Source of the DNA: an uncultured Thermoplasmata archaeon
Lineage (GTDB): Archaea > Thermoplasmatota > Thermoplasmata > UBA10834
DNA length: 64,000 nucleotides
Assembly: GCA_963719945.1 (NCBI GenBank)
Contig: CAVRDX010000004.1
Location: 259,744 to 323,743 of the forward strand
Reading direction: 5' to 3'
Position numbers and translations under genes: made by a program. The notes under the pieces are model-generated. The model searched no databases and was not told the origin of the DNA. It worked only from the letters and a program-made list of their open reading frames with translations. Positions within the stretch are counted from its first letter, which is position 1; every line of letters starts with the position of its first letter. Positions 5,041 to 49,947 of this stretch are shown piece after piece.

Positions 5041-6365
5041 CCTCTGATACCATTCATCCTGACGACTTTCGCTTCCAGCATGACCCGCTTGCCGATGTCG
5101 TGTCTCACGAATATCTTGCCAGAGACATGCCTGATCGCGTTCTCTGCGATCCTCTCAGCCTCGTCTATCTCCTCCGAGACACCGACGATGCCCACAGACC
5201 TCGACGTGGTGGTGTAGACCTTCCCATCCTTCTCGTTCACGCTAGCATAGTACAACACCGCGCCCTCGTCCGATATCGCCTTCTCATCGACCTTGATCTC
5301 CTCTCCTGCGAGAGGTTTGGAGCCGTATCCTGCAGGGACGACGTACTTACAGACGGAGGCTTTTCTGTGGAATTGATTGAGACCGTTCGCGAGGTTTCCG
5401 TCTGCCATCCCCTGGCATATCTTCACGAAATCGCCACGCAACAATGTGAGGACGTTCATGGCTTCGGGGTCTCCGAACCTCGCATTGAATTCTATGACCT
5501 TGGGGCCATCCTTCGTCAGCATGAACTGGCCGTACAGGGTCCCCTTGTACGGCGCCCCCTCCTTCTTGAGGGCGCCGACGGTCTGCTCTATTATGGACAC
5601 CGCCTGGTCATAATCCCCCTTGGTCAGGAACGGCAGGAGCCCATCGGACTGCGAGTATGAGCCCATGCCTCCGGTGTTGGGCCCTTTATCTCCCTCATAG
5701 GCCCTCTTGTGATCTTGGACCGCTGGCATGGGCAGTATCCTGGTGCCATCGCAGAATGCCTGAAGCGTGAACTCCTCGCCGACGAGCTTCTCTTCGAGGA
5801 CGATCTTGCTGCCGCCTATGCGGCTCGATATTATCTCCTCCGAATAGCGCAGGATGTCTTCCTTGGTCATCATGTGTTCGCCAAAGACCTTCACTCCTTT
5901 CCCGCCTGTGAGTCCTGTCGGCTTGACGACGATCTCGTTCCCGAGCGCGTCCAGGCCTGACACGACTTCGTCCATCGTATGGGCCTCGATGAATCTCACA
6001 GATCCCTTCACACCGTATTTCTTCATCAGGTTCCGCATGAAGATCTTCGAGGTCTCTATCCTCGCAGCGTCCTTGGACGGACTGGCTGTGGGTATGCCCG
6101 CATTCTCGAGCCCGTCCGCCAGACCGACCTCGAGAGGCGCCTCCGGCCCTACGACCGCAAGCTCGACACCCTTCCCCTTGGCGTACTCGACCACCTTCGC
6201 CACATCCATCTCGTCAACATAGAATGTGTCCTTAGCGATCCTAGCGATGCCGGGATTCCTGTTCTTCATTGCGACGAATACATCAGCGCCCGATCTCGCG
6301 AGTCCGCTAACGATCGCGTGCTCTCGGGCACCTCCCCCAACGGCCAGCACTTTCATTATATGCAA
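5028..6365 (-). CDS. purD: Phosphoribosylamine--glycine ligase
   Basis: N-terminal MKVLAVGGGAREHA, an ATP-grasp core, and EFNARFGDPE near the C-terminal half. Confidence 0.95.
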   Translation of the reverse strand: MHIMKVLAVGGGAREHAIVSGLARSGADVFVAMKNRNPGIARIAKDTFYVDEMDVAKVVEYAKGKGVELAVVGPEAPLEVGLADGLENAGIPTASPSKDAARIETSKIFMRNLMKKYGVKGSVRFIEAHTMDEVVSGLDALGNEIVVKPTGLTGGKGVKVFGEHMMTKEDILRYSEEIISSRIGGSKIVLEEKLVGEEFTLQAFCDGTRILPMPAVQDHKRAYEGDKGPNTGGMGSYSQSDGLLPFLTKGDYDQAVSIIEQTVGALKKEGAPYKGTLYGQFMLTKDGPKVIEFNARFGDPEAMNVLTLLRGDFVKICQGMADGNLANGLNQFHRKASVCKYVVPAGYGSKPLAGEEIKVDEKAISDEGAVLYYASVNEKDGKVYTTTSRSVGIVGVSEEIDEAERIAENAIRHVSGKIFVRHDIGKRVMLEAKVVRMNGIRGCSR

Positions 6366-10532: not shown

Positions 10533-11408
10533 ATGGAAGTATACGCCTTCGTCATAGTGGCTGCAATCATCGCTGCTATCGCCTACTCCTATCTGAAGCA
10601 GTTCAGTTTCTCCCTGGTCGCCAGCGCAACCTGCGGTGCAGTGTTCCTGTTCATGCTTATCGAGGCGGGAAGCTCGAGCCTGATACACTCACAGGCAATC
10701 TCAGAGCTCGGCCTCAAACAAAGGGACATAATCGACCCAGAGAGGTTCTACACGGTGCTCACATCTATGTTCACCCACGCCAGCTTCTTCCATGTATTCA
10801 TGAACGTGCTCGCCCTGGCATTCCTCGGCATGATCCTGGAACAGCGTATCGGGACTCGTCAATACATCCTGATATTCTTGTTCGCTGGGGTGTGCGGGAC
10901 ACTCTCATTTGTAGCATTCAGGTGGAACGAGCCAGCAATCCTGGTCGTGGGGGCTTCCGGGGCGATAAGTGGCATATTAGGCGCGTTGCTCAGACTGTAT
11001 CCACAGGAACGCATGACTCTGATGTTCTTCCCCGGGATGCCTTTGCCGCTCTGGACAATAGTCTTCGGATTCCTGCTTCTTCAGCTTGTTATGCTGGTCG
11101 GCGATTACGGAGTCGCGGTGGAATCTCATCTGGGCGGTTTGGTCGCCGGAATGTTCGCAGCACCTTATTTCGCGAAGGCGCAGATCCGTGGCAGGGAGAA
11201 GAGGACAATCCCCGTCTCAGCATTGAGGAAACTAGCCACCACACCGGAGTTAAGAGCCATGCTGGCTAGGATAGAGGATGAGGAGATCTTTGATGTCAGG
11301 AGCGCATGGATCGAGAAGTACATCTCCGTCGCCAAGTGTCCTGTGTGCGGGGCTCCTCTGAAGTCCCGGAAGGCTGGTCTGTTCTGTGATCGAGGGCACA
11401 TCCTATGA
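10533..11408 (+). CDS. Rhomboid-family intramembrane serine protease with C-terminal zinc ribbon
   Basis: Multi-TM protein with catalytic GASGAISG, a downstream His helix (ESHLGGLVAGM), and a C-terminal CPVCG...(11)...CDRGH. Confidence 0.85.
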   Translation: MEVYAFVIVAAIIAAIAYSYLKQFSFSLVASATCGAVFLFMLIEAGSSSLIHSQAISELGLKQRDIIDPERFYTVLTSMFTHASFFHVFMNVLALAFLGMILEQRIGTRQYILIFLFAGVCGTLSFVAFRWNEPAILVVGASGAISGILGALLRLYPQERMTLMFFPGMPLPLWTIVFGFLLLQLVMLVGDYGVAVESHLGGLVAGMFAAPYFAKAQIRGREKRTIPVSALRKLATTPELRAMLARIEDEEIFDVRSAWIEKYISVAKCPVCGAPLKSRKAGLFCDRGHIL

Positions 11409-36982: not shown

Positions 36983-37795
36983 TCATCGATGACGTTTCCC
37001 TTTTGCCATCTCTTTCGCCAAGATCTCATCGTACGGTATCTTGCCAAGGAAATCAACGCCTCTCTCCATTGCCATTCTCTCAATGGAACCCGTGGCGTCA
37101 GCGTTGATGTCTGCCCTATTCACGACGATGGCAGCTCTGATCCCAAAACCATGTACCAGGTCCAGTATTCTCTCGAGATCGCTGAGGCCAGAATTGGTCG
37201 GTTCAGTGACAACCACAGCAATGTTCGCGCCTGACAATGATGATATGACCGGGCATCCAACTCCCGGTGGTCCATCAACGAGAATGAATGGAAGATCATG
37301 TTCTCTTGCCATCATCCGGGCTTTTTGTTTTACTATCGCCACCAGCTTTCCCGAGTTCTCGGCACCTGGTTCCAGGAGCGCATGTATCATTGTTCCGCAG
37401 TCGGTTTCTGAGACGAACCAATCACCGACATACCTGTCCTTCATCTCGACTGCCCCATTGTCACATATCCTGGCACATAGAGCGCATCCTTCACACGCAT
37501 CTGCATCTATTCTGACCTTGCCAATGCCAGGATTGCCTGTGCTTAGTATGGCATCGAATCTGCATGCAGGGATGCACCAACCACAACTGGAGCACATGGT
37601 ATCATTTATCTCCGCAATCTTCGAACCGATGAAACGCTCACTCTGAACCATCTTTGGCCTAAGCATCAGATGAAGGTTCGGCGCATCGACGTCACAATCC
37701 GCCAGCACTTTATCATGCATCACAGAGGCCAGAAATCCTAGAAATGTGGTCTTGCCAGTTCCACCTTTTCCGCTTATTACGACGATTTCCTTCAT
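36983..37795 (-). CDS. MinD/ParA-type P-loop ATPase with inserted 2x[4Fe-4S] ferredoxin domain (copy 2)
   Basis: Deviant Walker A VISGKGGTGKTT. Ferredoxin motifs CSSCGWCIPACRFDAI and CEGCALCARICDNGAV. ATGA overlap with copy 1. Confidence 0.85.
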   Translation of the reverse strand: MKEIVVISGKGGTGKTTFLGFLASVMHDKVLADCDVDAPNLHLMLRPKMVQSERFIGSKIAEINDTMCSSCGWCIPACRFDAILSTGNPGIGKVRIDADACEGCALCARICDNGAVEMKDRYVGDWFVSETDCGTMIHALLEPGAENSGKLVAIVKQKARMMAREHDLPFILVDGPPGVGCPVISSLSGANIAVVVTEPTNSGLSDLERILDLVHGFGIRAAIVVNRADINADATGSIERMAMERGVDFLGKIPYDEILAKEMAKGKRHR

Positions 37796-38676
37796 CGAGA
37801 TGCCTCCTTCAGAATGCAGTCTCTTAGCTCCGAGAATACACTAGCATATTCCGGAAGGTCCGAGATGATTCCTCCTTTCGAGTAGATCTCGGCAATCCTT
37901 CTATCAAGGGGTAATGTGCCAGCTACTGGCACATCTAGCGATTCACATAGCTTGCGGACATTTGGGCCGGGGAGACCATACTTGTTGATGAACACCATCG
38001 TGGGTATGTCGAGCTTTCTTGTCACGTTTAGCGCCAGCTTCAGGTCATGGATCCCAAACGGAGTGGGCTCGGTCACCAGAACGCAGATGTCTGCTCCTCT
38101 GATGCTCTCCACCGCTGTGCATGCTGTCCCAGGCGGGCAATCTATTATCGTTACATAATCGCCAGGGATCGCCCTCTTCACCTTCTTTATCAATGAGGTA
38201 GCCGTTGCCTCGCCCACCTTCAACCTCCCATACAGGAGGTTCAGTATGCCTCCATTCGCTCTGACGATGGCACCCATCATATGGTCCTTCTCAATGATCG
38301 CATCTTCCGGACAGAGCATCGTGCATGCGCCACAGCCATGGCAGAGTTCTTCGAATACCATGACTTCCTTGGGCAGCACGACGATGGCATGGAATTCACA
38401 TACTTTGCCGCAATTCCCGCATAGCGTGCATTTGTCTCGGTCTATTTTTGGCACGGGTCTGTAGGCAGCTTGCTCCGAATTGGAGGTGGCGCCTGCAAAG
38501 ATGTGGCAGTTGGGCTCTTCCACATCCAGATCAACGAGAAGAGAACCATCAGTCACTGCTGCGAGGTTGGTGGCGACCAGGGTCTTTCCAGTCCCTCCCT
38601 TTCCGCTGGCTATCGCTATTCTGATTGGATCTCCTCCATTACACGAGGGCATGATCAGTGGTGATGATCCTTGCAT
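37792..38676 (-). CDS. MinD/ParA-type P-loop ATPase with inserted 2x[4Fe-4S] ferredoxin domain (copy 1)
   Basis: IASGKGGTGKTL. Ferredoxin motifs CTLCGNCGKVCEFHAI and CHGCGACTMLCPEDAI. The start is 38676 or the internal ATG at 38652. Confidence 0.85.
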   Translation of the reverse strand: MQGSSPLIMPSCNGGDPIRIAIASGKGGTGKTLVATNLAAVTDGSLLVDLDVEEPNCHIFAGATSNSEQAAYRPVPKIDRDKCTLCGNCGKVCEFHAIVVLPKEVMVFEELCHGCGACTMLCPEDAIIEKDHMMGAIVRANGGILNLLYGRLKVGEATATSLIKKVKRAIPGDYVTIIDCPPGTACTAVESIRGADICVLVTEPTPFGIHDLKLALNVTRKLDIPTMVFINKYGLPGPNVRKLCESLDVPVAGTLPLDRRIAEIYSKGGIISDLPEYASVFSELRDCILKEASR

Positions 38677-39014
38677 GCGATATCATGTGTCGCTGGCTGC
38701 AGCTTACCCTCGGTCCACAGCTTGATTGCGTCTCTCGCAGTTCCGGTCGCTCCTACGAATACTTCGATGTTGAACGACTGGAGCATGTCGATTGCCCTTG
38801 GTCCAAGGCCAGCGCATAGCATGATCCGAGCACCGGTTTTCGCTATGTGCTCTGGTGGTTTTCCAAGGCCACCCATGTGCTCGCTCCTGTTCTTCACGAT
38901 CAAAACATCGTTGCTGTCGAGGTCCACTACCGTGAACGTCGGCGCGCGGCCGAAGTGATCGCTCACAAGATCATCCAATCCACCTTTGTCCATTGTTGGT
39001 ATGCAGAGTTTCAT
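38655..39014 (-). CDS. NifB/NifX-family (dinitrogenase Fe-Mo cofactor biosynthesis domain) protein, copy 2
   Basis: 119 aa. DHFGRAPTFTVVD...GARIMLCAGLGPRAIDML...IEVF is the NifX/NifB-C fold pattern. ATGA overlap with the upstream Zn-ribbon ORF. Confidence 0.85.
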   Translation of the reverse strand: MKLCIPTMDKGGLDDLVSDHFGRAPTFTVVDLDSNDVLIVKNRSEHMGGLGKPPEHIAKTGARIMLCAGLGPRAIDMLQSFNIEVFVGATGTARDAIKLWTEGKLQPATHDIACKDHHH

Positions 39015-39172
39015 CTGTTAGCACTCCTGTTCTTTTCGATCTTATCTTTGAATCGCATCCTCCACCCTTCTCTGAGTATTTTGGTGGAGCCGCAGCAAAA
39101 GCATTTATCGGGTTTCTCGGGCATGGCAATATCGAGTCCGCATGCACCACATCTGAATCTGAGGATTCTCAA
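39011..39172 (-). CDS. Small zinc-ribbon protein
   Basis: CGACG...(12)...CFCCGS. The proposed TTG start forms a TTGA overlap with the IscU-like stop. The ORF-track version starts at the ATG at 39256, inside the IscU-like gene. Confidence 0.5.
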   Translation of the reverse strand: MRILRFRCGACGLDIAMPEKPDKCFCCGSTKILREGWRMRFKDKIEKNRSANR

Positions 39173-39636
39173 TTCGTCCCCTTCTTGGTTTTTGAATTTC
39201 TTCCTTCGCAATCTCTTATTGCATTCCTGAACGCGATTATGGCGAGGTTGGCGCAATGCCTGTGATCCTCCGGAAGCCCTCCCAGCGAGTGTTCGAGTTC
39301 CTCCGCCCTCAGCTTCTTTGCCTCGTCGATGGTCTTGCCAGAAACCATCTTTGTCAGCCGACTTCCGCAGGCTATAGTCGCGCCGCAGCCATCAGTATAG
39401 AATACACATCGCGTTATGCGGCCGTCCTCCACTCTTATCCATATCTCCATTGTGTCCTTGCATAGACCATCTGCGATGCCATTCCCATTTGCTTCGTCGA
39501 TAGGACCTACGTTCGCCGGATTCCTGAACTCAGCGATGACCTCTTTTGAATAGATCGCTGATTCATCCGCATCGATTACGGCCATTATGTTATCGACGAG
39601 TCTGTCGAGTTCGGAGGCTTCTTGTTCGTCGCTCAT
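39169..39636 (-). CDS. NifU-N/IscU-like Fe-S cluster scaffold protein
   Basis: Three scaffold Cys contexts: GLCKDTM, YTDGCGATIACGS and HRHCANLAIIAF. The ATG at 39636 is preceded by GAGGGTG. Confidence 0.85.
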   Translation of the reverse strand: MSDEQEASELDRLVDNIMAVIDADESAIYSKEVIAEFRNPANVGPIDEANGNGIADGLCKDTMEIWIRVEDGRITRCVFYTDGCGATIACGSRLTKMVSGKTIDEAKKLRAEELEHSLGGLPEDHRHCANLAIIAFRNAIRDCEGRNSKTKKGTN

Positions 39637-39643
39637 GGCACCC

Positions 39644-40066
39644 TCATCCATTTGGATTCGGCCCATGCGGACCACGACCATGATGCCCAGGGGATGTCCA
39701 TGACGCCATCTGCGTCAGTTCTCCTTTCTTGAATGCATCAACTGCAGACCCGACCGTCCCTACGCATCTCGTGAATGCAGCGACACCGCTGCCGTTCAAA
39801 ACCATGAAAGCGTTAGGTCCAAGATGTCCAGTGATCACCACTCCGACTCCAAGGTCCACGACCTTCTGAGCCGCCTGAGTGCCGGCTCCACTGCCGGAGT
39901 CCTGGCCAGGGTTTCTTACCGCTCGATGTGATCCATCTGTCTCGAACACGACGAAGTAATTGCATCGGCCGAATCGTGGATCAAGAGGTGAATCTATCGA
40001 ATCACCAGTCGCACTCACTGCTATGCATCGCTTGTCTTCGTCTCTTGCAGACTCTCTCGAATTCAT
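39644..40066 (-). CDS. NifB/NifX-family (Fe-Mo cofactor biosynthesis domain) protein, copy 1
   Basis: RFGRCNYFVVFE...GVGVVITGHLGPNAFMVL...AAF, with a His/Gly/Pro-rich tail. ATG at 40066, internal to ORF 39644..40312. Confidence 0.85.
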   Translation of the reverse strand: MNSRESARDEDKRCIAVSATGDSIDSPLDPRFGRCNYFVVFETDGSHRAVRNPGQDSGSGAGTQAAQKVVDLGVGVVITGHLGPNAFMVLNGSGVAAFTRCVGTVGSAVDAFKKGELTQMASWTSPGHHGRGPHGPNPNG

Positions 40067-40070
40067 GTAT

Positions 40071-40241
40071 TCACTCCCAACATTGAGTCCCACGCATTCT
40101 TGAGCCACAATATGGACACAAAGTCCTGTTGCATGGCACGCCTCTTGTTGCGTGAGGCACTCGTTTCCCGCACTTCGGGCACACGCATAAGGTGGACCCG
40201 AACTCGGAACAGTCGTCACTTGAGGATTCTTGGTTCTCCGC
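40071..40241 (-). CDS. Zinc-ribbon ORF (CVCPKCG...CPYCG); start unresolved, possibly the 3' part of a frame-disrupted gene
   Basis: CVCPKCGKRVPHATRGVPCNRTLCPYCGSRM sits at the 3' end of ORF 40071..40379. A TTG at 40241 is one possible start. Confidence 0.45.
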   Translation of the reverse strand, partial: AENQESSSDDCSEFGSTLCVCPKCGKRVPHATRGVPCNRTLCPYCGSRMRGTQCWE

Positions 40242-40401
40242 CAATCCTTCCCCTCCAGAATCTTTGAGGGCGCATCCGTCTCGGATTGCCAAGATTGCAT
40301 CCACACTGACATGGTCTGCCTCTAGATCCGAATCCTGGGTCACCGGATTTGTGATATTCGCGGTTGTATCCAGCACCACGTCCTCCGATACCTCTCCTCA
40401 T
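40216..40401 (-). CDS. Gly/Arg-rich small ORF (DUF5320-like N-terminus by recollection)
   Basis: The ATG at 40401 directly abuts the Mrp stop (TAG-ATG). The product begins MRRGIGGRGAGYNREYHKSGDPGFGSRGRP. It overlaps the Zn-ribbon ORF in another frame. Confidence 0.45.
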   Translation of the reverse strand: MRRGIGGRGAGYNREYHKSGDPGFGSRGRPCQCGCNLGNPRRMRPQRFWRGRIGGEPRILK

Positions 40402-41262
40402 CTAGCTCACCTCTTTTTCAACCAACTTGATGATCCTGTCCGTGATTGGTTCGAAAGCCTTTGACGCACCATTCGAGCCACCTGCAAATGGCTTGCCCTC
40501 ATCACCGCTCTTGGCAATCTCGGGATCGATAGGAAGCTTTCCAAGGATTGATATGGAGAGATCTTTGACAGCTCTCTCGACGCCGCCGTCCTCGAACAGC
40601 TTTATTTCCTTTCCACAATGCGGGCATTGCAGGCCATACATGTTCTCAACAAGTCCCAGTGTTCTCAGTCCGACTGCCTTCGCGAAATTGATGGATTTCC
40701 TGACGCTGAGGAGGGCGACATCCTGAGGCGTGGTCACTATGATTGTCCCGTCGGGGGATGGGACGAGCTGGGCCACGCTCAATGGCTCATCTCCAGTCCC
40801 TGGAGGCAGGTCGACGATCAGATAATCAAGTTCACCCCAGGATACCTCTTCGAGAAACTGCTTTATCGCGCCCATCTTCACAGGCCCTCGCCAGATCACC
40901 GGCGAGTCTTTGTCCTTGAGCAAGAATGCAATCGAAACGACCTTGATCGATGATCCGAAGATGGCAGGCATGATCTTGCCGTTCTCGTCTATGTTCAATG
41001 GCAGATTCGGCAATCCCAACATTTTGGGCACGCTTGGGCCATGCATGTCCGCATCAAGCAGACCGACTTTCCTTCCTTTCTTGGCTAATCCTGCAGCGAG
41101 ATTCACGGCAACAGTGGATTTCCCAACGCCGCCCTTGCCGCTCATCACTATGATCTTGTGTTTGACCCCTCTGAGGTTCTCCTCTGCGCTGTTGCCGGAT
41201 TTATCCTTGGAGGGAGCTGTCTGCTTTCCAGTGAATGCGTTCATACTATCGACACTCTCCAT
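40402..41262 (-). CDS. Mrp/NBP35/ApbC-family Fe-S cluster carrier ATPase
   Basis: VMSGKGGVGKSTVAVNLA Walker A, a DLPPGTGD motif, and CPHCG. Confidence 0.9.
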   Translation of the reverse strand: MESVDSMNAFTGKQTAPSKDKSGNSAEENLRGVKHKIIVMSGKGGVGKSTVAVNLAAGLAKKGRKVGLLDADMHGPSVPKMLGLPNLPLNIDENGKIMPAIFGSSIKVVSIAFLLKDKDSPVIWRGPVKMGAIKQFLEEVSWGELDYLIVDLPPGTGDEPLSVAQLVPSPDGTIIVTTPQDVALLSVRKSINFAKAVGLRTLGLVENMYGLQCPHCGKEIKLFEDGGVERAVKDLSISILGKLPIDPEIAKSGDEGKPFAGGSNGASKAFEPITDRIIKLVEKEVS

Positions 41263-41267
41263 CTGAT

Positions 41268-41654
41268 CTAGCAGGTGAACACTCGGTCTGCATCAGCAGC
41301 CTCAGCAGCGAAATCCATGAGGTTGATGAACTCGACTCCCTCGATGAACGCTTTCTTGTCTATGCCCCTTGTTTCAAGGCAAGGGATGCAGACCTGGACT
41401 TTGCCACCGCTCTGCACGAACGCGTCGATCATCTGCTTCACAGGTGCCATGCCCTCTACCGACTTGAGCTTCTCCGCAAAACCCTTCTGGACAAGCTTGA
41501 CCCCGCTTCCGGTCAAGAACACCTTCGTCTTGATGCCAAGCGCGGATGATGCGCCTGCACAAGCGAAGGTCATGGTCGCTCTTTCGACATCCTCGTCTCC
41601 GTGCGTTCCAACAACGATGAACGACTTCTTGCTGTAATCTTTAGCTTCTGACAT
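41268..41654 (-). CDS. DsrE/DsrF-like (sulfur-relay fold) protein
   Basis: 128 aa. The pattern FIVVGTHGDEDVERATMTFACAGASSALG...VFLTGSGVKLV...VCIPCLETRG resembles COG2044 DsrE-related proteins, by recollection. Confidence 0.7.
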   Translation of the reverse strand: MSEAKDYSKKSFIVVGTHGDEDVERATMTFACAGASSALGIKTKVFLTGSGVKLVQKGFAEKLKSVEGMAPVKQMIDAFVQSGGKVQVCIPCLETRGIDKKAFIEGVEFINLMDFAAEAADADRVFTC

Positions 41655-41700
41655 TCTGATACCTATGTGATACTAGCGGCATCAGGGTCAAGTCAGGAAC

Positions 41701-41716
41701 GGCGAACAAGTTCGCC
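41701..41716 (-). other. Intercistronic stem-loop
   Basis: GGCGAAC-AA-GTTCGCC lies in the 74-nt gap between the DUF1847-like and DsrE-like genes. No T-run follows it. Confidence 0.3.
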
Positions 41717-41728
41717 GCCCGCCAAATA

Positions 41729-42322
41729 TCAATCTTCAGAAAGGCCAAACCTGTTCTCCTTGTAGTACGCGCTGTATATGGCTCCAATTGGGTTGTGCGC
41801 GAGCACTCGATCCTTCACTATGAGTGTCGTCACAGGTGCCTTCGAGTGTTTCGTGAAGAGTATGTCGTGCCCGATGCACAGGCCGATCGCGATGTTCATT
41901 TCAGTGCCTACCTCTGCGAGGCACATGGCTTGACCGATTGGATTGCAGACTGCTTCATTGGCGCTATCTCCATGCATCTTGACCACTCCAAGGTCAGCCT
42001 TGTCTATTCCGCAGACCTTGCAGCATACTGAATGGACTTCGAAGTCGTTCTTCTGCAGGATATCCGTGATGGTTCTTGCCTCCGATGAAAGGCCGACACA
42101 GAATGCCACCCCGAGCTTCTTCATTCCCATCTCTTTCGCGTAGATGATCAGCTCTTCGAGTCTCGTTAGCTTCATGTAGTGCTCGGCTTCGATCTTGCCT
42201 GAGACGAGCATGGATTCGAGGTCGAACCCTTCGTACTCTCTCTTGGCCTTCTGCGCCAAACCGAAGCAGTCTTTACCCTCGTAGCAGTCCTTCTTGTCGC
42301 AATGCGCGCAATCCGTTCGCAT
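41729..42322 (-). CDS. Cys-rich metal-binding protein (DUF1847-like by recollection)
   Basis: MRTDCAHCDKKDCYEGKDC N-terminus plus CCKVCG and CIGHD. The ATG at 42322 is preceded by GGAAGGTG. The ORF-track N-terminal extension is Arg/Ser-rich and overlaps the upstream gene. Confidence 0.65.
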   Translation of the reverse strand: MRTDCAHCDKKDCYEGKDCFGLAQKAKREYEGFDLESMLVSGKIEAEHYMKLTRLEELIIYAKEMGMKKLGVAFCVGLSSEARTITDILQKNDFEVHSVCCKVCGIDKADLGVVKMHGDSANEAVCNPIGQAMCLAEVGTEMNIAIGLCIGHDILFTKHSKAPVTTLIVKDRVLAHNPIGAIYSAYYKENRFGLSED

Positions 42323-42353
42323 CTTCCACACCTTCCTTCGTCTCGCAGCAGTA

Positions 42354-42998
42354 TCAGCAGATCTCTCCAATATGGCTCGCAACAAGCTTCCTCTCAGCCC
42401 TTCGCAAGATGACATCGAGAGTCGCTTTTGATATCTCCAACTTCTTCGCGAGCTTATCGAGCGTGACCTTCCTCGGAATTTCGAAATATCCTGACTGGAA
42501 CGCGATCTGGAGCACTTTCTCCTGGGCAACAGTCAGTTCGGAGGCGGTTCTCATGACCGATACTTTCTCCACCTCGACGGTGCAACCCAAATCCTTGACC
42601 TTGGCCACAAGGTCTGTCAGAACCGCAGCATTTGGAGCTATCACGTTCCATTGCATGACGCCGTTCTCGCGGTTGGATGCGGAATCTAGAAAACATCCAG
42701 AATCGGCCATCAATCTGCAGGCTGCACAAGTCTGGAGTTCCACGGTGCCGATGTGTCGACCAGGCCCTGCGCTTGTGAGCTGCACGTTGCAGTTCGGTTC
42801 GATGGCGCGTATCTTATCGACAAGCTCCTCTTGCGTGATCCCAGGATCCGTATCTATCTGGAGGAGGCTCTGTCCGCCGGTACCGTTCTTCGGTATGCAT
42901 CTGAGTATCTTCACTGAGAGGTCGCAACTGCTCGCGAGGCACCCTATCCAGTTGCCTGGTATCTTGATAAGAAGTGACGCGAATCTCAAACCGATCAT
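42354..42998 (-). CDS. HTH_10 (Bat-type) DNA-binding regulator with Cys-containing N-terminal domain
   Basis: C-terminal LTVAQEKVLQIAFQSGYFEIPRKVTLDKLAKKLEISKATLDVILRRAERKL is the HTH_10 signature. The ATG at 42998 forms an ATGA overlap with the DUF134 stop. Confidence 0.75.
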   Translation of the reverse strand: MIGLRFASLLIKIPGNWIGCLASSCDLSVKILRCIPKNGTGGQSLLQIDTDPGITQEELVDKIRAIEPNCNVQLTSAGPGRHIGTVELQTCAACRLMADSGCFLDSASNRENGVMQWNVIAPNAAVLTDLVAKVKDLGCTVEVEKVSVMRTASELTVAQEKVLQIAFQSGYFEIPRKVTLDKLAKKLEISKATLDVILRRAERKLVASHIGEIC

Positions 42999-43352
42999 CC
43001 GTTTCCTTCTGCCGTCGTCTCGATCGATTCTGACTCCGGTCCTTTCGAGCGGACGGGTCGATTGTATGCGGGACATTCCTCGCGAATCTTGAGTGCAGAA
43101 CCGTCGATCAACGATTTTGCCGCCTTATATCTGGCGCTCGACAATATTCGATTAAATGTCGGTTGTGACACGTCCATCTTCTCTGCGGATTGACCTTGTG
43201 AAAATCCTTCCAGATCCGACAATCTGAGTGCCTCTAGTTCATCCAAGTTCCATCTCTATGCTTGATAGTTCGTTCAAGGGAGTCCCTTGTGGTTTGAATA
43301 TCTTGTAATTGGGGTCCAGGCAGACCTTTCTGCATCTCTTTGGTCTAGGCAC
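42995..43352 (-). pseudogene. DUF134 (UPF0251) DNA-binding protein, reading frame broken by one extra nucleotide near 43243
   Basis: From the GTG at 43352 one frame gives MPRPKRCRKVCLDPNYKIFKPQGTPLNELSSIEMELG-stop. The +1 frame continues LDELEALRLSDLEGFSQGQSAEKMDVSQPTFNRILSSARYKAAKSLIDGSALKI. Together these form a canonical DUF134. Confidence 0.8.
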
Positions 43353-43354
43353 GG

Positions 43355-43384
43355 TTATGAATAATAATTCATAACTACTTTAAT
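43355..43384 (-). promoter_or_regulatory. Promoter/operator candidate of the cluster: TATA-like ATTAAAG plus a 20-bp palindrome
   Basis: TTATGAAT-AATA-ATTCATAA (43355-43374) ends 3 nt upstream of the GTG at 43352. A TATA-like element (plus strand CTTTAAT, 43378-43384) lies about 29 nt upstream of the start. Confidence 0.45.
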
Positions 43385-43771
43385 CTTGTCCATGAATAAC
43401 CTCGAGGTCGAGCAGTCATACCGAACCTCAGGCTAGGCATCTGCGTCGATCATCACGAACGTGTCCCGATGGAATTGAAAATCATCGTCGATTATTATGC
43501 ATCATTTATATAGTCAAATGATGACCTCAGATGCTTTGATTCCTGATGCGTGTTTTATGAGTGAGGCGAAACCATTAACACCCGTAAACCTCCATATCTA
43601 TTCCTAGGACTCTTGGCATTCGCTGAGAGGGTAGGTGGTTTGTTTCATGGAGCGACCAGTAGATCGGTCCACCGGTGCCTCTGCATCCAGAGGCCGGGGA
43701 ACCCATTGAGCTGACAGGCTACCGACTGTTGACCATCTCCGTCCGGTTCAGAGATGGTGCATGGAGGTGAG

Positions 43772-44230
43772 ATGGTGGATAGACAGAATATTGGAGACCC
43801 GATCAAAATATTGTTGGTGGAGGACAATCCAGGGGATGTTCGACTCACCGTAGAACTCTTCAAGGAATGCAAGATAAGAAACGACATGTTTGTCGTCAAC
43901 GACGGCATAGAAGCAATGGAATACCTGAGACACGCGGGGAAGTACGCCGATTCGAAACATCCGGACTTGATACTTCTGGACCTCAACCTTCCACGTAAGG
44001 ATGGACGCGAGGTTCTAAAAGAGATCAAGACCGATGAGAAACTGAAGCGGATCCCCGTTGTCATCCTGACCACGTCCAGGGCAGAGGCGGACATAATCAG
44101 GACCTACGATTCATACGCAAATTGCTATGTCACGAAACCTGTGAACCTCGACGAGTTCATGAAAGTCGTTCAATCTATCGAGTCATTCTGGCTTTCTATA
44201 GTGAAGCTGCCTCCTGATGGCACGAGGTGA
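43772..44230 (+). CDS. Stand-alone response regulator receiver (CheY-like)
   Basis: [10 protein letters not shown], phospho-acceptor context [10 protein letters not shown], and TKP. The ATG at 43772 is preceded by GGAGGTGA; an alternative ATG is at 43754. Confidence 0.85.
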
Positions 44231-44240
44231 ACCTTAGGGT

Positions 44241-46095
44241 ATGTTGAGCGTACTGCTTATAGAAGACAACCAGGGCGATGTCCGCTTGATTCGGGAAATG
44301 ATCAGGGAGAGAGAGACCGTCTCTCTATTCGCCCTCGAATACGTATCGACATTAGAGGACGGACTGGAGGCCATCGACAATGGACACTTCGATATCATCC
44401 TACTCGACTTGGGATTGCCAGACAGCCAGGGATTGAATACCCTGAGGACGTTGCGGTCCAAAGCCCCGAAGTCGCCTATTGTCATCATCACCGGACTTGC
44501 GGATGAAGTCACTGGGATATCTTCCTTGGAAATAGGCGCAGATGATTTTCTGAATAAGAGGGAGCTGAACGCAAGCTATCTGACCCATGCGATATTGTAT
44601 GCGATTCAGAGAAAGGCCTTGACTGAGAAGTTGAAGCTGAGCGACGCATCGGTCGAATCTGCGAACAGCGGGCTTATTGTAGCTGGACCGAAGTGGGAGA
44701 TACAACATGCGAATTTGTCCGCTTCACAATACCTAGGCTACACCCAGACAGAGCTTCATAATCAGTTATTGACCAAGTTCTCGAAGGATGAATCTAAACT
44801 CGTTGCTGGGCTGAGATCCGTTGTGATGACTTCAAGCTGGAGCGATGAGATCGAGATGATTCGAAAGGATGGCGATCCGTTGCTGGCCGAAGTGTCAGCC
44901 ACCGCTGTCAAGGACGAATCTGGCAAAGTCACGTACATAATCGTCTCCTTCTCGGACATTTCTGCTCTGAGGGCTGCGGAGCATGAGCTTCAAGCCACAG
45001 AGAAGAAGTATCAGCACCTATTCACTATTGCAATGGAAGGATTCTGGGTGATTGATCCTTCTGCCAAGACTATCCTAGCTAATCCCAGGATGGCTGAGAT
45101 GCTCGGATACACTTCTGAGGAAATGGCTGGCAGAAGCCTCTTCGAGTTCATGGATGGCGAGAGCAAGGAGCTCATCAATATGCTCCTGCGGCCGCGGAAG
45201 TCTGGCATGTCTGAGAAACACGAAATCACTTTCGTGAAGAAGGACGGATCCGCGCTGTATGCCCTTCTGCACGCCACGCCGATCATGGATCCGGATGGTT
45301 CGTATTCTGGAGCACTTGCGTGCGTCGCAGACATATCTGATCGCAAGCGATATGAGATTGAGCTTAAGGAACGAACCGAAGAGGCCGAGGCGCAGCGGCA
45401 GCGGGCTCGCACATATTTCGATTTGCTGGCACACGACATTGCAAACCTGATCTCGCCTATTCAGCTATATTGCGATCTCACCCGCCTTGAGAAGAATCAT
45501 TCCTCGGAGACTCTGCTTCGGGCTAAGCGTTTGTCAGACCAATCGAAAAGAGCATCATCATTGATCATCAACCTCAGAATGCTGGAGGAGCTTGAGCGAG
45601 TCGGCCCAGGGAACGTCGAATCGATCGACCTCATTGAAGTAATTGCGGATGTGAACGAGAAGGCAAGGTCGGAGTATTGGTCGAAGAGCGTCAGTCTGAA
45701 GATCGTTGGTCACAAAGGGGAAAGCGTCCATGTTAAAGGTGGCACATGGACGAAGCATGTCATATCCGAGATTATCAACAATTCGGTCAAGCACTCCGAT
45801 AGCAACGCTGTCAATATCCGCATCAGCATTTCAGAGGTTGACTGTGGGTCCGGAATTGAAGGTTGGCAGATTGATTTCAGTGACGATGGCCCTGGCATTC
45901 CAAACGATATGAAGGATCTTCTCTTCTCTACGTTTCGACCCAATGAGGCGTTTCAAGCGAGGAGTCGCTACGAACATGTCTTTCTGTTCCAGTTTCGTCA
46001 AGCATTTTGGAGGCGAGATAATAATCGGCGACCGAATTGAATCCCACCCTGAGAAAGGTGCCAAGATCACATTGAGATTGCCAAAAGGTGAGTGA
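44241..46095 (+). pseudogene. Hybrid sensor kinase (REC, 2x PAS, HisKA-like, HATPase_c) with a +1 frame break in the ATPase domain
   Basis: REC (LLIEDNQGD, DIILLDLGLPD), two PAS-like blocks, an H-box (LAHDIANLISPI) and an N-box (IINNSVKHS). The annotated tail after about 45910-45963 is nonsense. The +1 frame gives RFDPMRRFKRGVATNMSFCSSFVKHFGGEIIIGDRIESHPEKGAKITLRLPKGE, with its stop at 46093-46095. Confidence 0.8.
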
Positions 46096-46534
46096 CTTGA
46101 AAGCAGGAATATTCGTTGTCGAAGATGAGGCAGCCTTCTTCGAGATATACAATGCGGTATTTTCGTTGCTTGGGCTCGAATTGGTCGGTTGGGCGTACAG
46201 CGGCGAGGAGGGCATTGACAAGTTCAAGCAACTGGATGCCTGTCCCGCGCTGGTCATAATGGATCACAGGCTTCCTGGGAAGAATGGCATAGAGACGATG
46301 CTCGAGATGTCTCGCATATGGCCTGATGTCAAGACGTTGTTTGTGAGCGCGGACGGATCGGTTAGGGGAGATGCGCTTTGCCATGGTGCGCTTGACTTCA
46401 TTCAGAAACCGTTCGAGTTGCGTGATTTCATGGTAGCGATCAAAAAGAGCATACCGGGGTTCTCCACCAAGATTGACGGTGAGAAGGCCAACGTTCGGAA
46501 GTTGAAGTCAGACCATGTCATTGAGTCAACCTGA
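46088..46534 (+). CDS. Stand-alone response regulator receiver
   Basis: IFVVEDEAAF and ALVIMDHRLPGKNG. The GTG start overlaps the reconstructed kinase stop by 8 nt. Confidence 0.85.
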   Translation: MSDLKAGIFVVEDEAAFFEIYNAVFSLLGLELVGWAYSGEEGIDKFKQLDACPALVIMDHRLPGKNGIETMLEMSRIWPDVKTLFVSADGSVRGDALCHGALDFIQKPFELRDFMVAIKKSIPGFSTKIDGEKANVRKLKSDHVIEST

Positions 46535-46586
46535 GGACCATTATCATTTGGATGGTGACACTCTGATCGACGGATTATTTCCAGGG

Positions 46587-48570
46587 TCATGCAATTCCTG
46601 TCGATCCCTCTATTCCATCCGGTATGCTGAAAATAAACCTTGCTCCTTTTCCGGGCTCAGATTCTAACCAGATCTTGCCGCCATGCCGCTCGACTATCTT
46701 CTTGCATATCGCGAGTCCGATGCCTGTCCCGGAATATTTACGACCTGCGTGCAATCGCTGGAATATGATGAATATCCGTTCCGAATATTGCGCTTCAATT
46801 CCTATCCCATTGTCCTGGACTGAGAATACCCATTCGCCAATCCCTCGTTCTGCAGAGATGTGGATTCGGGGGGTGTCATCCCCTCGGAATTTCATTGCAT
46901 TGCTGAGCAGATTCTGGAGCAACTGCACGAGCTGACCTGGATCGGCTACAACAATCGGAAGCGGGCCAGTAGTGATGATGGCCCCGTTGTCTTCTATCGC
47001 CATCTTCAAATTGAGCATTGATTCCTTGAGGACATTATTGAAATCGATCTTGGAGAACTGCTTTCCTCGCGTTCCAACCCTCGAGAATGCAAGCAGATCA
47101 TTTATCATTCCTTGAAGCCGGTTTGCTCCATCAACAGCATATCCGATGAATTCATCCGCATCGTCATCCAGCTTCCCTTCGTATCGTCGAGACAGGAGTT
47201 CCAGATAGCTGGCGATCATGCGAAGCGGTTCCTGCAAATCATGAGATGCGATATATGCGAATTGCTGGAGCTCGTCATTGGACCTCTTCAACTCTACATT
47301 GGCCAAGTCTAGTTCCACGGTCCTCTCCTGTATCTTCTTCTCCATGTCGTCCCGATACTCCTTGAGGCTCGCGGTCATCTCGTTGAATGTGGATGCGAGC
47401 TCACCGATCTCGTCTCTGGAACTGTATGTCGACCCTCCTATCGAGATTCCCTCCAGAAACGTCTCGAGCTGCTCCCGTGAACAGTCTGATAGGTCTTATG
47501 ACGGATCGCATCGAGAAATATGCTACGACCCCTCCTAATGCCAATAGCACCGCTGTTATCTGTATTGCGACATTGCGCAGCTCGTGTGCGGGAGCGAGCA
47601 CTTCGTTGAGGTTGTAGCCGACGAGGATGATCCATCCGAATCCACCATAATTCAGATATCCTGGCGAAGTGGCATAGGAATAAAGCACATCGCATCCTCC
47701 TTCAGTCGTGACGAATGATCCAGTCTCGCCATCCAATTGTACAAAGTAACTCTTATCCGAGATGTTTTCCAAGGTGGCATATGCATCCGAAGAGTACAAT
47801 AGTCTACCATCTGGAGTGACCGCCTTGATCACTCTGCTGGCATATGGTGACGGCGTCAGTTCTATCTCGGTTTCCCTGACAATGCCAATCAGGTTCACGA
47901 TGCCCTTCATGACGCCGACCATGGTTCCGCTACTATCTTCTATTCTCACACATACGCTGACTCCGTATGTGCGAGAGCAATCATCGTAGCCCATGTCGCT
48001 GATGTAACTCCCGTTCTCCACAGTAGCGTGCCACCATTCATCATCCTGCAGATACTCGGTCACTCTAGAAGACATAGCAATAGTCGCTCCATACATGTTG
48101 GTGATGAGGACATTATTGTAGACATCGTATCCTCTCTCCACGAGGTTTTTATCAACCAACCGTTCCTTGATTATTTTGGAAAGGTTATTGTTCTCGATTG
48201 ATTGAATGAGCTCTGAAGTCTCATCGAACGGCACGGAGTGCCACTCAGAATCGATTTCTGCGATGTATGCTTCGAGATCCGGTAACTCACCGAAATCAAT
48301 GTTCGATTGTGACACAGCATCGACGAGTTCCGAGTCTTGGGACAGGAGGTCGATGGCATAATGTTTCAATAATATGCCTCTATCCAGGCTGAACGAGGAT
48401 TTCCACGCGACAGCAATCGTGCCCTCCGCAGTTGTGTTCTTCAGGGTTTCGCTGTTCTGTATAAGAACCAACCATGTGAGTCCGCTCATTAAGACAAGTA
48501 CAGCTATGAATCCGACACCCAACTTGAATGTCACACCGGATCCGAACTGGAGTTTGGTATCGCTGGTCAT
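46587..48570 (-). pseudogene. Membrane sensor histidine kinase (TM, extracytoplasmic Cache-like domain, TM, HAMP, HisKA, HATPase_c) split by a +1 frame break inside HAMP
   Basis: ORF 47401..48570 ends RPIRLFTGAARDVSGGNLDRRVDIQFQRRDR-stop. The frame of ORF 46587..47378 is open upstream and reads SSRDEIGELASTFNEMTASLKEY, then SHDLQEPLR (H-box), and GTGIGLAICKKIVERHGG. Confidence 0.8.
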
Positions 48571-49823
48571 TGATACACCAACTCTTCATTGATTACCTTT
48601 GCTGGGAAGAGGGGGATTGCGAAGTTGTGGTCACCAGGAGACACGCATATATTTCCAAGGACCCCGTTGTAGACGAAACCTTTCAACAGCAGGTTGCGCA
48701 CGTTCTCCCTCGACACCTCTTGGTCGATAAGGAGGCTGGATAGGAATTTGATTGCATCATATCCAGATGCACCTTGATGCGTTATCGAACGGTTATACAA
48801 GGCCTGGAAGCTGTTCTCGAGCCGGTCAGAGTACGAATAGGCTGGCCGGTATATGTTCGGCGCTGAAACATAAGCCCCGTTCGCGACCATTAGTTCTCTG
48901 ACGGACGGAGTGGCTGCTCCGCTCCCGAGGAAGATGTGTCCCGCGTAGTCGGAATCTCTTAGCTCCTGGAGTATACCTTCATAGTAGCTAGTCAATCCGA
49001 CCGCGAAGATCGCGTCATTCTCGGAAAGGTTCTGTACCTGCAATGAGAAATCATCCGCCCATGGCTCAAATCCTTCGTACTCGAACTGAATTCCTCTCGA
49101 CTCGATTTCGGGTAGGAATGCGTTGAGAACCGAGTTGCCATACTCATCGTTGATATAGATGAGTCCCAGCTTCCCGATTTCAAGGGAATCCATCTTGATC
49201 AGGGCTGGTCGGACTTCCTCCTGCGCACCGAAGTAGTATCGGAAGACCCAATCCCTTCCGGCTGTCACGGTGTCAGATGAAGTGACAACCGCGACAAGAG
49301 GCGTTTCATTCTCTTCCGCGAGCGGCGCGAGTGCAATGGAGATTGAGCTCACTGCCGAGATGTACATGAGGGGATGGTACTCGTTCTCGATATCTGCATA
49401 GATTTCGACTGCCTTCGATGAGTTGGACTCGCAATCCCTTATGATTAGCTGAATTTCCCTTCCGTTCAGATGGTTTCTTGTATTGATTTCGTCAACTGCG
49501 ATGAGCAACGCATCCCTGACGTCTATTGTGGATGCAGCTCCTGCGCCAGTAAGCGAGAGTATGACGCCTATCCTGATAGGTTCCTTATTCCCATCAACAA
49601 AATATTCCACGGAGAAGAACGCCGTGGCTGAGAGGATTATGATTATGAACACTGCTAATAATCGATAGTATGTGCGGCCATTCGCATTCTTTTGCTTGCT
49701 CCGCAACCTTCTCTGCCTAGTTTTCTCTACTGGATCTGTAATGCTTTCCACCATTCCAGATAGCGTGCGTCGCGCTGCTAATCCGACTGATTGGTCGGAT
49801 CTCATCGAACCCAGCCCCCCCAT
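48567..49823 (-). CDS. Membrane-anchored type-1 periplasmic-binding-protein-like (Leu/Ile/Val-binding family) protein
   Basis: N-terminal TM helix (LLAVFIIIILSATAFF), then an LIVBP-like start (IRIGVILSLTGAGAASTIDVRDALLIAVDEIN). Its stop overlaps the kinase start (ATGA at 48567-48570). Confidence 0.78.
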   Translation of the reverse strand: MGGLGSMRSDQSVGLAARRTLSGMVESITDPVEKTRQRRLRSKQKNANGRTYYRLLAVFIIIILSATAFFSVEYFVDGNKEPIRIGVILSLTGAGAASTIDVRDALLIAVDEINTRNHLNGREIQLIIRDCESNSSKAVEIYADIENEYHPLMYISAVSSISIALAPLAEENETPLVAVVTSSDTVTAGRDWVFRYYFGAQEEVRPALIKMDSLEIGKLGLIYINDEYGNSVLNAFLPEIESRGIQFEYEGFEPWADDFSLQVQNLSENDAIFAVGLTSYYEGILQELRDSDYAGHIFLGSGAATPSVRELMVANGAYVSAPNIYRPAYSYSDRLENSFQALYNRSITHQGASGYDAIKFLSSLLIDQEVSRENVRNLLLKGFVYNGVLGNICVSPGDHNFAIPLFPAKVINEELVYQ

Positions 49824-49947
49824 CTATCGACAAGAGGCACAATAATGATATCGGTGAGCTGTGCGTCTTTGGATATCATATCCACTCACCCGCCCGCCCT
49901 GGCTGACTGTAGGGTGTGTATTTGTTCAGCCGCAGAAACAATGGATA

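Follow-up and report, generated by a model that had tools for sequence, protein, structure and literature searches.

The proteins of the DUF134/UPF0251 family (PF02001) share an N-terminal PRxxxCRxxC segment and a sigma-70-region-4-like HTH, and searches of the literature and the PDB returned no characterised member and no close solved structure. The protein nearest to the one studied here is an intact 120-aa DUF134 from a Thermoplasmatota MAG (87% identity), whose gene lies ahead of those for HTH_10, DUF1847, DsrE-like, Mrp/ParA, NifX-like, NifU_N and CbiA-Fer4 proteins. The same gene setting is found in the window, by which we mean the whole 64,000-nt stretch of DNA that was analyzed (G000:C4:259744-323743, where G000 is a 1.78-Mb, four-contig metagenome-assembled genome that is 87% complete). 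In the deposited sequence, the DUF134 reading frame of the window is split within the DUF134 domain. Indels are the commonest long-read error, and nearby allelic variants in a collapsed assembly cause reads to be aligned wrongly, giving indel errors and apparent frameshifts (PMC8445201). Judged from the sequence comparisons presented below, the DUF134 split is likely to be an artefact of this general type, namely an uncorrected one-base consensus error, and in the real organism the DUF134 (UPF0251) gene is most probably intact, with a length of about 121 codons.

The split DUF134 gene and its relatives

The DUF134 gene stands first in a conserved cluster concerned with the handling of Fe-S and metal cofactors. 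The genes behind it, at 36995-42998 of the window, encode an HTH_10 regulator, a DUF1847 protein, a DsrE-like protein, an Mrp/ParA ATPase, two NifX-like proteins (Nitro_FeMo-Co), a NifU_N protein and two CbiA-Fer4 ATPases. Beyond the cluster lie a DtxR-family regulator gene and FeoB. The DUF134 product is most likely a small DNA-binding protein in which an N-terminal Cys pair (RCRKVC) is followed by the sigma-70-region-4-like HTH. It is probably the transcription regulator of the cluster, acting at a conserved palindrome that lies immediately ahead of the gene (Table 1). This palindrome is kept in all same-genus orthologues, and a genome-wide search allowing up to 3 mismatches found no further copy of it. 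A TATA-like TTAAAGTA sits just upstream of it (window 43354-43384). Together, the palindrome and the TATA-like box constitute a putative operator and promoter of the DUF134 gene, and with this arrangement the transcript would be leaderless and possibly autoregulated.

Translation of the 37-codon frame that opens with the GTG gives MPRPKRCRKVCLDPNYKIFKPQGTPLNELSSIEMELG on the minus strand. Past the break, the +1 frame reads (L)DELEALRLSDLEGFSQ..., also quoted as (L)DELEALRLSDLEGFSQGQSAEKMDVSQPTFNRILSSARYKAAKSLIDGSALKI..., up to its own TGA. When compared with Pfam, the 37-aa piece corresponded to profile positions 6-35 of PF02001 (E = 0.0057 on its own) and the 83-aa piece to positions 37-90 (48.7 bits against a cut-off of 27), while the joined protein gave one match to positions 6-90 of 98 (75.5 bits, E = 5e-21). 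Because both pieces join into one PF02001 match, the break falls inside the domain and is no chance juxtaposition. The original prediction that a DUF134 gene is split here by one extra base is borne out by this result, and Pfam and the orthologues also support the layout it proposed, with the N-terminal Cys segment placed directly before an ELEALRL HTH core. The extra base had been called a G. However, the orthologues read GAA CTG GAY where the window reads GAA CTT GGA T, so that the inserted base is most parsimoniously a T (plus-strand AA, 43245-43246). Deleting either the T or the G yields an identical protein.

The first break was correctly located, but two further indels in the gene, at 43085 and about 42990, had been missed. 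The insertion at 43085 swaps the conserved tail (ALKIARNVPH... / IARNVPHTIDP...) for unrelated residues. Applying the frame of the relatives to this part of the window shows that it still encodes ALKIARNVPHTIDPSARKD..., with the conserved ALKIARNVPHTIDP. As deposited, the gene does not form a single uninterrupted ORF of about 100-125 codons.

Table 1. Positions of the DUF134 locus, its lesions and other broken genes (window coordinates unless a G000 contig is given).
Feature	Coordinates	Strand	Description
N-terminal DUF134 fragment	43239..43352	minus	GTG start at 43352, 37 codons, TGA 43241-43239
C-terminal DUF134 fragment, HTH core	42995..43246	minus	+1 frame, 83 codons from a TTG, TGA 42997-42995
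First one-base insertion	43245..43246	minus	CTTGG vs CTGG in relatives; from orthologue alignments and a blastn gap at 43245
Second one-base insertion	43085..43086	minus	AAGATTCGC vs AAGATCGC in relatives
One-base deletion vs all relatives	42989..42990	minus	at overlap of DUF134 stop and HTH_10 start
HTH_10 regulator gene	42354..42998	minus	start overlaps DUF134 stop; intact, 95% identical to G006
Perfect 9+9 palindrome GTTATGAAT-N4-ATTCATAAC	43354..43375	minus	1 nt upstream of GTG start
Strain-variable two-component island, 6.5 kb	43384..49939	.	absent from G006 and G005; abuts putative DUF134 promoter
One-base insertion	45935	plus	splits HATPase_c of RR-PAS histidine kinase (44241-46040 plus 45943-46095)
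One-base insertion	47423	minus	splits HAMP of dCache-HAMP-HisKA-HATPase kinase (48570-47401 plus 47378-46587)
M28 peptidase, GT4 glycosyltransferase, ATPase, DUF1616 membrane protein	G000:C4:326184-327196, 393417-393451, 397887-397959, 399143-399148		one or more small indels vs G006

That orthologues are continuous at this site was confirmed in every case examined. The gene is uninterrupted in at least eight genomes of the same genus (G001-G006, G008 and G011), and several genomes of the same family also carry an intact orthologue. At the break site, six independent assemblies, drawn from JGI, ENA, NCBI and Logan, are likewise intact, with the gene left uncalled in five of the six. The DNA alignment at the insertion site comprised seven same-genus orthologues and these six assemblies; overall, the extra base was absent from all of at least 14 orthologous sequences. 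Outside the strain-variable island, G006 and G005 align collinearly with the window, and identity is about 87%. In a separate observation, the orthologue in G010 (L020, G010:C101) matches residues 1-56 only and then diverges fully, with a TGA inside the match; a rearrangement in that genome or a truncated copy may account for this. In exact look-ups, five possible unbroken proteins gave no match, and neighboring proteins led only to short contigs from other strains or back to the contig of the window itself. Exact DNA patterns for either allele were found in neither JGI metagenomes nor GTDB genomes, and these searches brought up no independent assembly in which this exact strain's DUF134 gene is covered.

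Broken genes elsewhere in the assembly

The island upstream of the DUF134 gene encodes two response regulators, an RR-PAS kinase, a dCache-HAMP kinase and a Peripla_BP_6 protein, and its junction with conserved sequence is about 30 nt from the DUF134 start codon. Both kinases are broken in the window: the frame changes in HATPase_c of the RR-PAS kinase at about 45950, and in HAMP of the other between ...VDIQ and SRDEIGEL... (about 47400). An independent ENA contig of 6565 nt (L031) covers exactly the island, and in it the RR-PAS kinase (625 aa) and the HAMP kinase (660 aa) are both intact. Over 45883-48882 it is 99.9% identical to the window, with 2 mismatches and 2 one-base gaps, and the gaps coincide exactly with the frame-breaking insertions at 45935 and 47423. 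No substitutions separate the window from L031 in the gene for the 660-aa kinase. Since L031 is near-identical over this stretch and has both kinases unbroken, the comparison comes near to showing directly that the window assembly is in error in its insertions at 45935 and 47423.

Two other features of the L031 comparison deserve mention. L031 has an indel patch of its own at 5716-6163 (window 43939-44050), where a response-regulator gene that is unbroken (158 aa) in the window is split by six indels in 110 nt; within the strain-variable segment, both sequences therefore carry indel noise. The identity between window and L031 is also mosaic, at about 75-90% over 43383-45880, 99.9% over 45883-48882 and about 95% beyond, which suggests recombination between strains or a chimeric consensus.

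An indispensable gene is broken in the same way elsewhere in this assembly. Single-copy, essential uS13 is split in G000 by one extra T (G000:C1:114411-114795, site at about 114675, AAGAAC-T-GTCAAG), leaving profile positions 1-41 and 39-128 mutually out of frame, with AEIIARMAGIPKN and VKIGDLPEEK... on the two sides of the junction. In all 11 of the other genomes of the genus, uS13 is continuous over profile positions 1-128.

Small indels were also surveyed along the contig against a 417-kb contig of G006, of which 297 kb aligned. Following curation, the genes truly broken relative to G006 were those for DUF134, an M28 peptidase, a GT4 transferase, an ATPase and a DUF1616 protein. Most of their lesions are one-base insertions that fall outside homopolymers, and often one gene has several. 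All five lie no more than 1.4 kb from a synteny breakpoint or contig end, whereas only 15.6% of the aligned sequence is within 2 kb of one; three of the five share one contig-end patch, so these genes effectively represent three independent patches. This clustering near breakpoints is the pattern expected from collapsed co-existing variants. On the other hand, about 45 other window genes outside the island zone are full-length without any frame change, and in G000 four class-I aminoacyl-tRNA synthetases, as well as RpoB and the translation GTPases, are unbroken. The assembly is generally good, and the presence of clean genes beside broken ones indicates that the errors are patchy rather than pervasive. 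In the reciprocal test of G000 ORFs against G006, 2-3 possible breaks were left in G006 after curation, and the asymmetry between the genomes is unclear; the test is noisy because ORFs extended to the first possible start give false breaks.

Several candidate breaks were discarded. The in-frame stop at 11387 falls within a spurious N-terminal extension, and those at 38956/39019 belong to an antisense shadow ORF of a NifX-like gene. An apparent break at 40216-40260 (window 39644-40379) has the same layout in G006 without gaps and thus represents two genes and no frameshift; in this region a small Cys-rich zinc-ribbon ORF (CVCPKCGKRVPH...CPYCG) and the start of a NifX-like gene share sequence in different frames. 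SecY (PF00344) was rejected as an uninformative marker, being absent rather than fragmented: no match was detected in the whole G000 genome even at E up to 10, and the gene presumably belongs to what is left unassembled in this genome (87% complete).

These observations can be accommodated by a simple scheme. The DUF134 error would belong to a poor-consensus patch of about 4.5 kb (43.0-47.4 kb) that spans the junction of conserved sequence and the strain-variable 6.5-kb island. Reads of co-existing strains may have been collapsed or misaligned at this junction, leaving indels in the consensus. Such a long-read/strain-collapse origin is a plausible cause of the indels, and the case against the DUF134 base itself comes from its association with neighbors that are demonstrably or near-demonstrably erroneous. 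The original prediction had put forward an inactivated regulator, an assembly indel and a recoding event. The second is the one we favor, the first fits the data less well, and the third is effectively excluded (see below). Its headline reading, a split lead regulator with consequences for the whole cluster, is unsupported as biology because the same assembly splits essential uS13 along with two kinases that are intact in L031.

Alternative explanations for the frame break

The alternative that survives best is a genuine pseudogene, which we consider unlikely. Under this explanation, the strain would have lost its DUF134 regulator very recently by frameshift, perhaps after insertion of the island upstream of the promoter, and the cluster would be expressed without DUF134 or under the downstream HTH_10 regulator alone. 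Several features are in its favor: the frame break is there in the deposited sequence, one gene carries several lesions, the nearby island junction makes loss of the regulator after gain of the island plausible, and the many clean neighbors show that the assembly is not uniformly poor. The substitution record points in the other direction. Using G006, G005 and L033 as references for scoring lineage-specific changes, we counted 13 synonymous and 5 non-synonymous changes in the window lineage over codons 1-92, compared with 15 and 4 in intact G006. Purifying selection is thus undiminished, and relaxed selection on the lesion-bearing lineage was not detected, although the numbers are small and compatible with a very recent loss. 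The DUF134 gene has three frame-changing indels within about 360 nt, and a gene drifting long enough to gain them should show neutral substitutions. Three indels without relaxed constraint fit consensus error better than decay.

The direction of the indels is a further difficulty for a pseudogene. Mira, Ochman and Moran reportedly found in 2001 that indels in natural prokaryotic pseudogenes are deletion-biased, whereas insertions dominate among the frame-breaking indels of the window. A pseudogene also requires that the two adjacent kinases were inactivated as well, with only 2 substitutions in 3 kb relative to an intact copy, and it has to be reconciled with a frameshifted essential uS13 in the same genome. 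In its broadest form, with the extra bases real and DUF134 and both adjacent sensor kinases lost recently through single-base insertions after island acquisition, this explanation appears rather improbable.

It is much less probable that the gene is naturally in two parts, with the 83-aa HTH piece functional from the TTG at 43246 and the upstream 37 codons lying outside it. A TTG start does fall exactly at the junction, and the 83-aa piece scores above the Pfam threshold by itself. However, in all orthologues examined the N-terminal PRPKRCRKxC segment and the HTH share one frame, and none of the full-length relatives examined starts at LDELEAL; such a start is what the original prediction had named as an argument against including the upstream piece. 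The N-terminal codons are moreover conserved at the protein level in the window, with the 37-aa piece 89-92% identical to its counterparts in G006 and G005, and the C-terminal tail is out of register with the family.

Least probable of all, and effectively excluded, is a programmed +1 ribosomal frameshift at CUU-G or at a GGA-UGA 'shifty stop' that would produce the full-length regulator: the zero-frame stop at the shift point (GGA UGA A) gives the site a formal likeness to those of antizyme or prfB and several G000 breaks need the same +1 correction, but the shift occurs in none of the orthologous sequences, a second and unrelated correction is needed at 43085 in the same gene, CUU is not a re-pairing-competent slippery codon, and the predicted fold of the 120 nt that surround and follow the site is no more stable than that of shuffled sequence (minimum free energy -20.1 kcal/mol; shuffled mean -25.0; z = +1.53). 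By codon-anticodon rules, re-pairing of tRNA-Leu from CUU to UUG is poor. A context-dependent +1 recoding at GAAC-U, common to uS13, can be almost entirely discounted as well. The GAAC^T context is indeed shared by the first DUF134 site, the kinase insertion at 47423 and uS13. However, its codon phase differs between uS13 and DUF134, and in the kinase it is on the non-coding strand; this leaves room for a DNA- or sequence-level process and not for a ribosomal signal. A systematic conversion of GAAC^T was considered and rejected, since the context shows no enrichment among the one-base insertions relative to G006 (4 of 129 against a background of 1.8%) and the motif counts are equal in G000 and G006.

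Consequences and comparison with known systems

With consensus error as the preferred explanation, the DUF134 split is probably of no biological consequence, and the regulator is most likely intact. The practical value of the result lies in the warning that single-base errors split genes in patches of this assembly, uS13 included. Calls of frameshifts, pseudogenes or recoding in G000 are untrustworthy without the reads, above all near strain-variable islands and contig ends, and split markers may slightly depress the 87% completeness estimate. If the break were real after all, an uncharacterised regulator family would have a natural loss-of-function allele beside a conserved candidate operator, and this natural knockout would show whether the downstream Fe-S/NifX-like cluster is under DUF134 control.

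Compared with the other members of PF02001, the deposited gene differs in having its frame broken inside the domain and shifted again at the C-terminal end. With programmed +1 frameshifting at a stop, as in bacterial prfB and eukaryotic antizyme, it shares the zero-frame UGA at the shift point; unlike those systems, it combines a lack of orthologue conservation, stimulatory structure and slippery codon with a second frame error in DUF134. The likeness to indel errors arising from long reads and collapsed variants (e.g. PMC8445201; the Trycycler paper, PMC8442456) is much broader: in both cases single-base indels split conserved genes, cluster at variants that were, in the present case, probably collapsed, and hit an essential gene; the two kinase insertions are moreover gone in an independent assembly.
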